Shown in pieces: positions 37,367 through 53,762 of a stretch of DNA of 64,000 nt. The position numbers and the translations under genes are program-made. Source of the stretch: Candidatus Undinarchaeota archaeon (GTDB lineage: Archaea; SpSt-1190; JASMDC01); the NCBI GenBank assembly GCA_964519305.1, contig CAZFHY010000012.1, forward strand, positions 32,001 to 96,000, written 5' to 3'. The notes under the pieces were generated by a model that saw only the letters and a list, made by a program, of their open reading frames with translations, was not told the DNA's origin and ran no database searches. Each line of letters opens with the position of its first letter. Position 1 is the first letter of the stretch.

Positions 37367-38017
37367 CTACCTGATGTTGATCCTGAGCACCGGTAGGCCG
37401 ATGCGGACCTGGACGCCAGGACCTCGGTAGTGGCGACCGTGCCATCTGTGGTGGTGGTGGGGGCCAGGATGGGAGTACGCGTTGCGCGGGTTGCTCCCGC
37501 GGAACACCTCGTCGCCATCGGACCAGCCGTCGCCGTCAGTGTCCCAGTGGGTCAGGTCGGTGCCGTGGTAGACCTCCTTCCCGTCCTTGAGACCGTCCCA
37601 GTCCGTGTCGATCGAACGTGGGTCGCTCCCGTACCGGTGCACCTCGGTGCCGTCGTTGATGCCGTCACGGTCCGTGTCCATGATCCGTGGGTTCGATCCG
37701 TAGGTGTTTATCTCGGCATGGTCGCTCAGTCCGTCGCCATCGGTGTCGATACCACTGCCAGCGCCACTATCGCCCTGGTAGTTGTTACCGCCACCGTTAG
37801 TATCGTAATTCCGCCATCCGCCGGACTTGCTGCCGCCCTTGTCGCGCCAGCCCTCCTGGGCGTTGGCCTCCTCTGCGAGAACGCACACGCCGACTATGGC
37901 ACCGGCCAATATTGCCGTGCCGGCCATACCGTAGGATGAGAGATCGTCAGTCTTATGGTAAGCGTCCGCCTTCTCGGCGGTAGCGACACCATCGGTTTCC
38001 AGGTCAAGACCGTACAT
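37367..38017 (-). CDS. Leader-bearing protein with DTDGDG (TSP3-like Ca-binding) repeats
   Basis: Four DTDxDGxxDxxE repeats; DLE/DD leader plus hydrophobic helix; His/Arg-rich tail. Confidence 0.85.
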   Translation of the reverse strand: MYGLDLETDGVATAEKADAYHKTDDLSSYGMAGTAILAGAIVGVCVLAEEANAQEGWRDKGGSKSGGWRNYDTNGGGNNYQGDSGAGSGIDTDGDGLSDHAEINTYGSNPRIMDTDRDGINDGTEVHRYGSDPRSIDTDWDGLKDGKEVYHGTDLTHWDTDGDGWSDGDEVFRGSNPRNAYSHPGPHHHHRWHGRHYRGPGVQVRIGLPVLRINIR

Positions 38018-38086
38018 GAGGGATTCCCGGCCCTCGGTCTGTTAATAAAGTTTTCCTTTAGTTGTCACCGGCGAGTGACGGCATAC

Positions 38087-38809
38087 CTACCTGAAGGTGA
38101 ATCTCAGCCCTGGTAGCCGGATTATGACCCGTCCCCCACCGGAGTGGTGTGGGTGGTGGTATCGCCCGTTGCGATAGCGCCATCCGCCATGGTGGTCCCG
38201 CGACCGGTGTCGTCTGTTCCAGCCGGGGTTGGAGCGTGAGTTGCGCGGGCTGGTACCGTAGCGCACCTCGTCACCGTCGGACCATCCGTCGTTGTCCGTG
38301 TCCCAGTCCGTAAGGCTCGTACCGTGGTAGATCTCCCTTCCATCCCAGAGGCCGTCGCCGTCCGTGTCCCTGCTCAGGGGGTTCGAGCCGTGCCTGAACA
38401 CCTCGGCACCGTCGCTGATCGAGTCACCATCGGTGTCGTAGATGCGGGGATTTGTCCTGTAGGTGTGGACCTCCTTGTAATCGGAGATACCGTCGCCGTC
38501 GGAGTCCCTGGTGTAGTTGATGTTCGGCTGCTGGTGGACGTGCTCTTGAACGTGATTTGTCTCGGGCTGGGGCTGATAGACCGGCTCTTGAGGCTGGTCA
38601 GGAAGGTTCCCGTTTTCGTCCTGGCCGACGTCGTAGTTACGCCAGTCGCGTGCCTCCGCCTCCTCTGCGAGCACACCGAGCCCGATTATGAGACCCGCCA
38701 TGGCGACACCGCCAGCGACACTGTAGGATGAAAGGTCGTCGGCTTGTCGATATCCGTCGGCCGACTCAGTAGCAGCATATCCTTCCGATTCGAGGTCAAG
38801 AGCGTCCAT
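38087..38809 (-). CDS. Leader-bearing protein with DTDGDG repeats (paralog)
   Basis: Four D[ST]DxDxxxDxxE repeats; same leader and tail as 37367-38017. Confidence 0.85.
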   Translation of the reverse strand: MDALDLESEGYAATESADGYRQADDLSSYSVAGGVAMAGLIIGLGVLAEEAEARDWRNYDVGQDENGNLPDQPQEPVYQPQPETNHVQEHVHQQPNINYTRDSDGDGISDYKEVHTYRTNPRIYDTDGDSISDGAEVFRHGSNPLSRDTDGDGLWDGREIYHGTSLTDWDTDNDGWSDGDEVRYGTSPRNSRSNPGWNRRHRSRDHHGGWRYRNGRYHHPHHSGGGRVIIRLPGLRFTFR

Positions 38810-38962
38810 GAAGCGTGTCAGAGCATGGCAGGGTTAATAAAGATTGTTACTCCGACGAGCGGAAACTGCGACAGAACAAGCGCTGAGTAAAGCGATTACT
38901 GCGTACGTAGGTCTACGGAACTCCGGGCAGGTCCCCGGCCGGGATTGTCGAGAGACCGGTCC

Positions 38963-39367
38963 CTAGAAGTTCTCCTCTTCCCTGCGGCGGGATGCGTAGC
39001 CGAAAGCGTAGGAACCGCCGACTATCGAGACCAGCAGTCCTCCCGCCATATGTCCTCCGTACTGCGCGAGCGTATTGTCCGCGACCATGTGAACGGAGTC
39101 CGACGGTATCCCGATAAATGATCCGTCGCCGTTGTCCAGGAAGTAGTCCGAGTCGAACAGACCGGTCTCGGCGAGCACGGGATTTCCCTGGGCGTCCTCA
39201 TAGTGCCACTCAGCATCGCCTATCCCGATGAGGCAACCCGCTGCCGTGGCAGCTAGAGCGATCCCCGCACCTGTGGCAATGGCGATATCGTTAAGGTCAT
39301 CGGTGATAGCATAACCGCCCGTGGTCGACGCGTCCGCATAGCCCGTCGTCTCCAGGTCTACGTCCAT
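38963..39367 (-). CDS. Leader-bearing small membrane protein
   Basis: MDVDLETTGYA...GGY..TDDL leader, second TM followed by RRR. Confidence 0.75.
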   Translation of the reverse strand: MDVDLETTGYADASTTGGYAITDDLNDIAIATGAGIALAATAAGCLIGIGDAEWHYEDAQGNPVLAETGLFDSDYFLDNGDGSFIGIPSDSVHMVADNTLAQYGGHMAGGLLVSIVGGSYAFGYASRRREEENF

Positions 39368-39438
39368 GGCCACGCTCCGCCCATCGAGCGAATAATAAGG
39401 ATTCAGAACCCCCCCAGAGGTGGTGCTCTCACTGGGAG

Positions 39439-51735: not shown

Positions 51736-51745
51736 GTGTATTATC

Positions 51746-52477
51746 ATGGAGAAACGAGAGATGAAGGTATCGGACCACGTCATCGTATGCGGGTACGACG
51801 GTGTCGGCAAGAACACGGTCGAGGAGCTTCTCATGATCGGGAAGAAGGTGATGGTGGTCGCCCCCGAGCTCACCAACGAGGAGATGGAGTACCTCTCCGA
51901 GCATCTCGTGGGCGTTGTGAGCGGCGATCCGACGGAGGAGACGAGCCTCAAGCGGGCCTTCATCGACTCCGCCGATACGATCATCGCTGCGCTCCCGCAG
52001 GTGGGCAACAATGTCTTCATTGCCCTTACCGCCCGGGACCTGAACCCGGACATCCGCATCATCGCCCGCTCGGACCAGTACTCGGAGTCCACCAAGCGCA
52101 AGTTCGTCCGCACCGGTGCCGAGCGTGTAGTCTCCCCGTACGTCATCGGCGGGTACATCCTTGCACGCGCGGCCACCCGGCCCTACTCGGCCGAGTTCCT
52201 CAACGACGCGCTGACGTCCACCTACGGTATCGAGATCAACGAGGTCCAGGTGCCCGAGGACGGGTCTGTCGCTGGTAAGAAGCTCGATGAGCTGGACATC
52301 AAGGGCAGGACCGGTGCACTGGTCGTAGCCGTCAAATTACCGGGGGACGATCTGGACAAGACGTTCGTGAAGAACCCACCACCGGACACGAAGCTCGTGC
52401 CCGGTAGCTGGGTCGTGGCCATCGGCTGGCCCAAGGAACTCAACCTCCTGAAGCGTCTCATAGAGTCGCTGGAGTGA
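51746..52477 (+). CDS. Soluble TrkA/RCK protein
   Basis: HVIVCGYDGVG, GDPTEETSLKRA, LTARDLNP, VVSPYVIGG. Confidence 0.92.
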   Translation: MEKREMKVSDHVIVCGYDGVGKNTVEELLMIGKKVMVVAPELTNEEMEYLSEHLVGVVSGDPTEETSLKRAFIDSADTIIAALPQVGNNVFIALTARDLNPDIRIIARSDQYSESTKRKFVRTGAERVVSPYVIGGYILARAATRPYSAEFLNDALTSTYGIEINEVQVPEDGSVAGKKLDELDIKGRTGALVVAVKLPGDDLDKTFVKNPPPDTKLVPGSWVVAIGWPKELNLLKRLIESLE

Positions 52478-52504
52478 GCTCCGGACAGCGTCGGGCCCAG
52501 GTGA

Positions 52505-52963
52505 CTATTCGTCCTCGGTCTGTGGCGCCAGCCTATAGGCCGCTACGGGTACGATGCCGCCCTTCTCTCCCGGAAGGAGCCGGAAAGGGACCTCGACGGT
52601 AGCGTCAGAGACCTGGAATCCAAAGACGGGATCGAGTTCTACGTTGAGCTCGTACGTGACCTTGAGGATGCCGTCCTCCCATGGATTCTCGCTCTCGCCG
52701 GTCTTCTCGTACTTGAGCGTCCTTAGCTCACCGAAATCCTCGCTGTCCTCGAAATAGCCCTTAAGCTCGTCGAGAACGCCTCGTGCCTGGTGAAGGATGC
52801 TCTCCTGGTAGAGTCCGTTCGAAACGGGCTCGAGTGTCTTGAATCCCTGGATGCATCTCTCGACCGCGTCGGCGTCCTGGTAGTTCTCGGGCGTCTCGAG
52901 AGTCTCGAGCTTGTCCGCATTATCGTAAATGGAAGTTAAATATCCACCGATCTCGTACAACAT
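52505..52963 (-). CDS. Hypothetical acidic protein (MLYEIG domain, stand-alone)
   Basis: Clear paralogy to the N-terminal half of 53898-54713. Confidence 0.8.
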   Translation of the reverse strand: MLYEIGGYLTSIYDNADKLETLETPENYQDADAVERCIQGFKTLEPVSNGLYQESILHQARGVLDELKGYFEDSEDFGELRTLKYEKTGESENPWEDGILKVTYELNVELDPVFGFQVSDATVEVPFRLLPGEKGGIVPVAAYRLAPQTEDE

Positions 52964-53024
52964 GGAGGTCGCCCGCTCGACGTCCCGGTTTTAAACATAC
53001 CCTTTGGGTTAGGGGTTCCTGTGC

Positions 53025-53762
53025 CTATTCGGACGAAGAGCTAGAGGAGCTCGATGAATCGCTGTCGGACTCCATGGCAGCGTCCTTGATGCCGTCGAAG
53101 GTCGCTGTTGCGTACAGAACTAGCTTCTTGGTGGCCGCGTCGACACCGCTGCGGAACGCAACGTCGTAGGTGTCCGTGAACGAGATGACGCGGGAGTCTA
53201 TGTCGGCCAGATCGCGGCCGCCCCCGCTCACGTCCAGATGGTTGTTGATGCGCATCACCTTGTTATCGAGCTCGGCGATGGTGCCGCCAGCGGGATTCCT
53301 GACGGTGCTGTCGTAGCCCCAGGACATTACCTTGCCATCGATCTTGGCGATGAGAGAGCCTTGGGCATCGTACACGTCGAAGTCGTGACCCCAGGCTAGA
53401 ACCTTACCGTCGATCTTTGCGACGAGGTCCCCGTCGCCATCGAAGACGTTGTAATCGTCGCCCCAGCTCAGCCAGGGTTTCTGGATGTAAGCGACGCGGT
53501 GCCCTTCCTCGTTGAGGATGTCGTACTGCTTGCGAAGGGAGAGGAGACGCTCTTCTACACGGAACCTGCCATCGTCGACGGTGAACTCGCTCTCGTTCTC
53601 GTACTTCTGGCGACCACCGACGTACGCCACCGCAGCGATGGCACCTGCAAGGAGTGCGCCATAAGCGATGGCCCTCCCTGAGATGTCATCCGAGGTGGAA
53701 TAGCCCTCGGCGGCGCTCGAGGTGGCATAGCCAGCACCTTCAAGGTCTATCCCCCCGAGCAT
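53025..53762 (-). CDS. Leader-bearing LURP-one/scramblase-like (tubby C-terminal fold) protein
   Basis: Repeats K.LSWG..Y.V.D..G..[VI]AKI; DLE/DD leader plus TM; Ser-rich tail. Confidence 0.85.
   Translation of the reverse strand: MLGGIDLEGAGYATSSAAEGYSTSDDISGRAIAYGALLAGAIAAVAYVGGRQKYENESEFTVDDGRFRVEERLLSLRKQYDILNEEGHRVAYIQKPWLSWGDDYNVFDGDGDLVAKIDGKVLAWGHDFDVYDAQGSLIAKIDGKVMSWGYDSTVRNPAGGTIAELDNKVMRINNHLDVSGGGRDLADIDSRVISFTDTYDVAFRSGVDAATKKLVLYATATFDGIKDAAMESDSDSSSSSSSSSE

Follow-up and report, generated by a model that had tools for sequence, protein, structure and literature searches.

An acidic N-terminal module ahead of a glycine/alanine-rich helix on diverse proteins of one Undinarchaeota lineage: a possible signal anchor with a conserved extension

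Introduction

Few sequence codes are better understood than those of signals and anchors, in which a basic head is close to universal. In the 64,000-nucleotide stretch of a Candidatus Undinarchaeota genome considered here (the window, C12:32001-96000), four genes encode proteins that start with very similar, strongly acidic segments, each followed by a helix rich in glycine and alanine and then by bodies of different kinds. What is this shared head, how far does it extend, and what might it do? A sequence-only reading of the window had taken it for a modular leader recognised by a dedicated chaperone, peptidase or secretion apparatus, possibly delivering proteins to a partner or host cell.

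In the present work, we examine these questions by means of profile searches over the whole genome, its relatives and large databases. We will show that the observation of a shared acidic head holds, and that it grows from four to 62 proteins. The explanation that we prefer, with a probability of roughly one half, is that the module would be an N-in signal anchor, or a signal-peptide-like element, with a conserved acidic extension.

Results

The four open reading frames (ORFs) are present on the minus strand, with translations matching those quoted earlier. They are listed here with the parts of their leaders; the leader motifs are located by translation and profile match.

37367..38017, minus: P0001 gene, 216 aa; acidic leader, helix, TSP3 Ca-binding repeats, His-rich stretch and C-terminal motif ...RIGLPVLRINIR
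37937..38005, minus: P0001 acidic leader motif, residues 5-27 (DLETDG...DDLS)
37874..37936, minus: P0001 Gly/Ala-rich helix, about residues 28-48, followed by EEANA-Q
38087..38809, minus: P0002 gene, 240 aa, a paralog of P0001 with cargo 54% identical over 140 aa
38729..38797, minus: P0002 acidic leader motif, residues 5-27
38666..38728, minus: P0002 Gly/Ala-rich helix, about residues 28-48, followed by EEAEA-R
38963..39367, minus: P0003 gene, 134 aa from the ATG; leader, helix 1, loop of about 50 aa, Gly-rich helix 2 and C-terminal RRREEENF
39290..39358, minus: P0003 acidic leader motif, residues 4-26 from the ATG
53025..53762, minus: P0004 gene, 245 aa; leader, helix, LURP-one/scramblase-like domain and Ser-rich acidic tail
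53679..53747, minus: P0004 acidic leader motif, residues 6-28
53613..53672, minus: P0004 Gly/Ala-rich helix, residues 31-50, with SGR on its N-side and RQK on its C-side

Over an ungapped stretch of 23 residues, D1, L2, E3, G6, A8, Y16, D20 and D21 are identical in all four heads, as had been reported. The motif begins 3-5 residues past the start codon; for P0003, a GTG at 39373, two codons upstream of the ATG, is an alternative start. In the four proteins, the helix that follows is an uncharged run, 20-23 residues long, in which G+A+S make up a fraction of 0.48-0.60, and the described ANA-Q (P0001) and AEA-R (P0002) do stand after it. Also the division of the cargoes into three kinds is upheld by Pfam, which finds TSP3_bac repeats in P0001 and P0002 (E 7e-21 and 2.8e-21), LOR (E 1.5e-6) and Scramblase (E 1.1e-5) in P0004, and no family in P0003, a small two-helix protein. 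The four heads match no Pfam or NCBIfam model even at E<=1, and PHROGs gives no match for the four proteins or their neighbours.

The genome (3.63 Mb, 42 contigs) was translated as a whole into 51,117 stop-to-stop ORFs of at least 40 aa, and hidden Markov models (HMMs) of 23 and 47 residues were built from the four window leaders only. At E<1e-3 they match 11 and 19 ORFs, respectively, and neither matches any reversed or shuffled ORF at this threshold. Iterated to convergence, the profile finds 34 ORFs at domain E<1, and 32 of them are below 1e-3, compared to none among the reversed or shuffled ORFs. The resemblance of the four leaders is thus far beyond chance. In each of the 34, a start codon (30 ATG, 2 GTG and 2 TTG) lies 1-8 residues ahead of the motif. 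The genes, about 1% of 3,181 crude gene calls, occupy 22 loci on 13 contigs, with frequent tandem pairs and triplets, and the proteins have 62-560 aa (median 143.5), 21 of them being shorter than 180 aa and nine at least 300 aa long. One leader gene, L009 (C20:57420-58748, in a trio of helical-repeat genes), is broken by a run of N that gives 34 X, and its C-terminal part is unreliable. A genome of the same genus (G001, the congener; the source genome is G000) holds 28 leader proteins with a motif offset of 3-8. All matches in the 34 + 28 proteins are N-terminal, such that the profile finds neither the four window genes alone nor internal positions.

The column counts that follow refer to these 62 leaders aligned to the profile, with rows lacking a residue included. 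The module has about 50-55 residues and lies within residues 1-55 in all 62. It starts M-Y/M-D-x (residue 2 is Y in 14 and M in 6 of the 34 source-genome proteins), continues with an acidic extension of about 23 residues, for which the consensus is (D/E)-L-E-T-x-G-Y-x6-(D/E)-G-Y-x3-(D/E)-D-L, and passes through a linker of 4-6 residues, ending in K or R in half of the members, into the Gly/Ala-rich helix. In the acidic part, D/E is found at column 1 in 55 leaders, L at column 2 in 55, E/D at column 3 in 48, T/S at column 4 in 49, G at column 6 in 37 and Y at column 7 in 42. A variable stretch of small residues then leads to D/E-G-Y (47, 36 and 53), and three variable residues lead to the closing D/E (49), D (62) and L (56), the second D of DDL (D21) being invariant. 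In the helix, the glycines of G-x-G stand at two fixed positions in 49 and 45 of the 62.

The tail ahead of the helix, averaged over the 34 leaders, has 30 residues, a net charge of -6.5 and 1.2 K/R, and the whole proteins are acidic too (net charges of -7 to -87). All 34 contain an uncharged run of 15-31 residues. Their helices have 22% G, 23% A and 14% L, with a mean Kyte-Doolittle (KD) value of 1.45, compared to 9% G, 28% L and a mean KD of 2.2 for 21 classical lipoprotein h-regions in the same genome. The latter have basic heads and Leu-rich cores, unlike the module, and the earlier statement that known signal peptides have basic n-regions is accordingly true within this genome as well. 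An AlphaFold2 model of the 55-residue module, calculated from the 34-row alignment, is one continuous helix with a mean pLDDT of 67, and of 56-62 in the acidic part, which is too uncertain for use; a complex prediction with four module copies scored 0.02 against a mark of 0.42 and gives no verdict either way. An EF-hand reading of DLETDG was rejected by eye, as the would-be bidentate Glu position is not conserved.

Next, the bodies were compared by all-against-all BLASTP of residues 61 to the end, for members with at least 25 residues there, and grouped at E<1e-3. The 32 cargo regions of the source genome fall into 21 BLAST-unrelated groups, and the 59 of both genomes pooled into 20. Different domains are joined to one common head, and homology over the full length is excluded. 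For the 34 proteins, Pfam gives TSP3_bac in three, Transglut_core in three, Peptidase_C93 in two and LOR in one, besides others, and NCBIfam gives the cysteine protease LapG in two; LapG acts in the periplasm. The recognised bodies are TSP3 Ca-binding repeats, transglutaminase-like, BTLCP and LapG-like cysteine protease domains, a LURP-one-like barrel, DUF4347, helical repeats with weak tape-measure-like matches and, in the congener only, FG-GAP-like repeats. Searches for homologs of the transglutaminase-type and LOR bodies return mostly proteins of the same lineage. A phage-tail identity of the C20 proteins was not accepted, the PhageMin_Tail and TMP_3 matches in Pfam being below or near the cut-off and within helical repeats; PHROGs gives only two weak matches, to families of unknown function, in one helical-repeat member.

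Pfam at E<=1 on the 34 modules gives no leader family, PF13018 included, and NCBIfam at E<=0.01 on the 34 proteins gives no leader model; no model of either collection covers the module. The idea of a modular, undescribed N-terminal leader is supported by these comparisons. The motif was likewise not found in the literature listings and abstracts consulted on Undinarchaeota signal peptides, acidic n-regions, archaeal polymorphic toxins, ESPR/YSIRK and archaeal lipoboxes.

The module is confined to a single uncultured lineage of marine archaea. In a set of 41 genomes (own, genus, class and domain sample), the only carriers are the source genome (34) and the congener (28), and the same two are the carriers among 17 genomes of the phylum. 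A HMMER search over 1.84 billion representative proteins gives 38 matches at E<=1e-3. Three of these are internal repeats of unrelated long proteins (P0005, P0019 and P0038), and the other 35 have the module from residues 1-6, or from residue 18 in one case with a longer called start. Compared with the source-genome proteins, 34 of these database carriers include four identical ones, many orthologs with 70-100% identity and about ten distant ones (27-57% identity in the leader). P0051, a 46%-identical ortholog of a transglutaminase member, has a degenerate head that keeps MYD...Y...DDLS, and related, more diverged carriers are therefore present in metagenomes. A profile scan of genome contigs gives two loci in a metagenome-assembled genome (MAG) of a Candidatus Undinarchaeales archaeon, and a metagenome scan gives three loci with the same proteins as in that relative; one such protein is named 'hypothetical protein' at NCBI. 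A protein-atlas search with residues 1-55 of P0002 returned no usable match. The window stretch is present in marine or seawater DNA sequencing runs, possibly its own source, with no RNA run among the matches listed.

It should also be mentioned that the source genome (99.8% complete, 4.3% contamination) and the congener (3.8 Mb) are large, the other 15 genomes of the phylum having 0.6-1.2 Mb at 72-94% completeness. This gap means either that the two form a branch with large genomes in a phylum of reduced ones, or that their placement is problematic.

We now turn our attention to export and topology. Judged by the features that define Sec, Tat, lipoprotein and class III signals, the module is none of these. 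The 34 leaders do not have the short basic n-region of Sec signals, and apart from ANA-Q and AEA-R in P0001 and P0002, no small-x-small site is conserved across the family. A twin arginine is found in one of the 34 (C10:128663, DRRHLTF), and the class III junction [KR][GA] in six, behind a leader that is long and acidic. A lipobox is not a feature of the family, and the N-terminal position differs from that of C-terminal sorting signals such as PGF-CTERM.

A few members do, on the other hand, carry a lipobox exactly at the end of the helix, and these belong to two unrelated families: C8:136321 (LAGC-SPK) with its ortholog L070 (LSGC-SPK), and L083 of the congener (LSGC-TGSSDD, followed by FG-GAP-like repeats). 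The consensus given in the consulted part of one paper is [LVI][ASTVI][GAS]C (PMC12462473). In a blind scan of the genome for lipoprotein signals, C8:136321 is among the 21 candidates. The same types of body also occur elsewhere in the genome behind classical basic, Leu-rich signals: two giant TSP3 proteins and one transglutaminase-like protein carry Sec-type signals, and a homolog of the C3:119347 body (54.5% identity over 55 aa) carries a classical lipoprotein signal.

The distribution of charges gives a further indication. In the ten members with exactly two hydrophobic segments, there are 13 K/R in the 12 residues after helix 2 and six in the 12 before it, with at least two after it in five of the ten, P0003 being one example. 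This excess fits a C-terminus inside, and hence an N-terminus inside as well. Helix 1 is bordered by K/R on its N-side in 17 of the 34 members, and on its C-side in 11. On balance, we consider the N-in orientation likely.

As to the machinery, the two carrier genomes have one SecY and one TatC each, and a few classical RR signals are present in the source genome. The source genome gives three rhomboid matches, one SPP match and, over the cut-off, four matches to the prepilin-type aspartic peptidases (Peptidase_A24), the latter at the following positions.

C2:158777: Peptidase_A24 match
C15:21050: Peptidase_A24 match
C5:36048: Peptidase_A24 match
C5:1472: Peptidase_A24 match

No rhomboid, SPP or A24 gene lies beside any leader locus, and clustering of the 301 crude genes within 6 kb of the 34 leader genes links no translocon or protease to them. 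Presence/absence profiling cannot discriminate here, because there are only two carriers and both are at least three times larger than their 15 phylum-mates. Of the earlier proposal, the modular leader thus stands, whereas the dedicated chaperone, peptidase or secretion apparatus was not found, and nothing in the analysis speaks for delivery to a partner or host cell.

Several other genes and sequence features were noted around the leader genes.

37367-37420 (P0001) and 38087-38140 (P0002), minus: shared C-terminal motif, with a His/Arg-rich stretch before it in both
39439..40323, minus: gene of 294 aa, immediately next to the cluster of three leader genes on its upstream side and in the same orientation
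52505-52963, minus: gene of 152 aa flanking P0004
53898-54950, minus: gene of 350 aa flanking P0004
C7:120580-125452, C8:10704-11486, C10:108311-109093 and C9:26267-27031: copies of a family of about 250 aa
C10:110490-117932: five tandem clostripain (Peptidase_C11) genes

The C-terminal motif consists of alternating basic and hydrophobic residues, e.g. RVIIRLPGLRFTFR, and is common to the four TSP3-group leader proteins (P0001, P0002, C10:84023 and C10:84441). As a general signal, R-I-x-L-P-G-L-R-F-x-F-R was rejected, since among all ORFs of the genome it is found only in these four.

The 294-aa gene has no transmembrane (TM) helix and no Pfam or PHROG match. Its position is kept in the relative, at 70% identity, and it is at most a candidate member of the leader system. 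There it is directly followed by two TSP3 leader genes (L041/L042), and the P0003-type gene is on another contig, which implies that leader genes move between loci. The two genes flanking P0004 are paralogous (29% identity over 156 aa, E 1.7e-11), with no further copy among the crude gene calls of the genome; neither Pfam nor PHROGs gives a match for the 152-aa one.

The family of about 250 aa is acidic and cytoplasmic, with seven paralogs, an N-terminal MPYE...GAIGEQ motif and a coiled-coil-like C-terminal end. A leader gene is found within about 4 kb of five of the copies. Pfam gives no match for the four that were scanned, nor does PHROGs for the one compared with it. PHP-domain genes are near leader genes at two loci, and the five clostripain genes are also in leader neighbourhoods. 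No link to the leader is claimed for any of these three groups. The clostripain genes bear a second, different acidic head (M-M-Y-x-E..., then EGLTLKQVA) with a Gly/Ala-rich helix, and the profile of this head also matches three ORFs (C24:5002, C36:5755 and C4:39150; whole-sequence E 8e-5 to 1.4e-3). It may be that this organism makes wider use of acidic heads with weak helices.

Discussion

From the lipoboxes, the bodies and the charge pattern we infer the following topology and export role. The helix would be the h-region of a signal anchor or signal peptide, inserted with N-in/C-out orientation, which would place the downstream part (TSP3 repeats, transglutaminase-like proteases, FG-GAP-like repeats and small loop domains) outside the cytoplasmic membrane. 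In most members the helix would be kept as an anchor, and in a few it would probably be removed, at the lipobox Cys or at an AxA-like site. The acidic extension would remain in the cytoplasm as a conserved add-on before the signal-like segment. It is probably a handle for some factor that delivers, orients or positions poorly hydrophobic helices; because the leader helix is only weakly hydrophobic, an extra handle or helper signal is plausibly needed.

It is important to point out that a number of observations weigh against this explanation. Two members, of 62 and 63 aa, consist of the module only, and for one of these the congener has an ortholog (L078) and the representative proteins include relatives (P0025 and P0032); a pure export signal without cargo makes no sense. 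Most members are small proteins with one or two helices, and look like permanently anchored membrane proteins rather than exported cargo. When orthologs are compared, the leader shows no stronger conservation than the body. Lipoboxes are present in only one of the 34 source-genome members and two of the 28 in the congener, and there is no conserved cleavage site. For the LURP-one-type body of P0004, usually cytosolic, all three distant homologs (169-201 aa) are soluble and without a signal or TM helix. As to the orientation, the positive-inside rule would place such a strongly acidic, K/R-poor tail outside, and the K/R within 8 residues of helix 1 are nearly equal on the two sides (28 vs 23). 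Finally, the search of the genome and of the leader neighbourhoods gave no candidate for a recognition factor. It is the module-only members, the small proteins, the fixed helix glycines and the unexceptional conservation of the leader that keep our estimate at only one half.

The same small proteins can be accounted for if the module is a shared membrane-docking or oligomerisation element rather than a sorting signal. The members would then be small membrane proteins of the glycine-zipper type, in which the G-x-G helix and the acidic head assemble mutually or with a common scaffold, some having gained extracellular domains. The 21 members below 180 aa fit this well, as do the two module-only proteins, one of them kept in the congener, the Gly-rich second helices and the frequent tandem arrangement (34 genes at 22 loci), and the fixed glycines suggest a specific helix-packing face. 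However, in the two families with a lipobox at the helix end the module must be taken off, unlike a permanent element. We regard this as rather unlikely; it is also partly compatible with the signal-anchor explanation, in that the module could serve for both anchoring and docking. A further option is that the acidic tag is the address label of a new archaeal sorting route, in which a dedicated factor, cytoplasmic or in the membrane, would read both DLE..GY..GY..DDL and the G-x-G helix. Without following the basic-n-region rule, some 1% of the proteome would then be sent to the membrane or to one specific structure or site on the surface. This can be put forward only tentatively, as a rather unlikely case.

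The remaining options concern the orientation, the processing and the origin of the module. The tail could cross the membrane and be exposed on the cell surface as a shared tag, serving to bind cations or to attach to the envelope, with the bodies in the cytoplasm. Its length of about 30 residues, its charge and its few K/R would suit such a passage, and the phage Pf3 coat protein reportedly has a short acidic tail that is driven across the membrane with YidC. The near balance of K/R around helix 1, the RQK directly after the P0004 helix and the signal-less LURP-one homologs elsewhere agree with it as well. Nevertheless, the lipoboxes and the TSP3, FG-GAP-like and LapG-like bodies would in that case be intracellular, the same body types bear classical signal peptides in this genome, and K/R are enriched after helix 2 (13 vs 6), all of which makes an N-out tail improbable. 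A prepilin-like leader of class III type, which an A24 peptidase would cut between extension and helix on the cytoplasmic face for the assembly of fibres or surface structures, has in its favour the four A24 matches, the conserved leader directly before a hydrophobic helix and the [KR][GA] junction in 6/34. This junction is missing in the other 28, though, and 17 of the 34 have D or E at the boundary. Class III leaders are short and basic, whereas the present one is acidic with about 28 residues, and since no A24 gene lies beside a leader locus either, we consider such processing very unlikely. One may also ask whether we see simply a paralogous family, in which the N-terminus is the sole recognisable remnant after rapid divergence and acts only as an ordinary TM anchor. 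Confinement to one lineage, common tandem duplicates and a leader no better conserved than the body speak for this. Distinct domains such as TSP3, transglutaminase-like, LOR, FG-GAP-like and helical repeats need fusions, though, and not only divergence, and D21 in 62/62 with the fixed G-x-G across all groups indicates selection on the module itself; plain paralogy has little probability.

Relation to known systems

A conserved, strongly acidic head with a weak, glycine-rich helix is present in 34 + 28 proteins, and signal peptides of the usual basic kind occur in the same cell. Should some specific factor read the head, the latter would represent a new archaeal sorting code and provide a handle for finding that factor, and it could serve directly as a marker for the surface proteome of this uncultured lineage. 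Should the tail be exported instead, the proteins would form a large natural family with N-tail translocation. In either case the family merits a profile model, as its members are now annotated as unrelated hypotheticals.

The part of PMC8151025 consulted describes the ESPR (PF13018) of type V secreted proteins as a conserved N-terminal extension, about 25 residues long, that opens the protein ahead of a normal-looking signal sequence, on many passengers and in a restricted set of lineages. As far as that description goes, the module has the same architecture, i.e. a conserved extension of about 25 residues before a signal-like segment on diverse passengers, without being a member: none of the 34 modules matches PF13018 in Pfam at E<=1. 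The ESPR is bacterial and not acidic, whereas the present extension is archaeal and acidic, and its Gly/Ala-rich helix is mostly without a cleavage site.

Other known signals share single features with the module. In Gram-positive bacteria, the n-region motifs YSIRK-G/S and KxYKxGKxW single out some of the exported proteins for a particular location or pathway; they are basic and short, and an accessory SecY2/SecA2 exists for KxYKxGKxW. The conserved n-region motif is alike, but here it is acidic, the genome has one SecY, and neither family is matched in Pfam (E<=1, 34 modules) or NCBIfam (E<=0.01, 34 proteins). Tat signals have a long n-region and a weakly hydrophobic, Gly/Ala-rich h-region, as the module does, and differ by the twin arginine, present in only 1/34. 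The likeness to lipoprotein signals lies in the helix-end lipobox of C8:136321, L070 and L083, only 3/62.

Finally, PGF-CTERM/archaeosortase, PEP-CTERM/exosortase and LPXTG combine a C-terminal signature motif and a TM helix with a dedicated transpeptidase, and such sorting signals have typically been found by genome-wide counting. The present module is N-terminal and without a known enzyme, and what it has in common with them is a motif and a TM helix on many unrelated proteins of one lineage.

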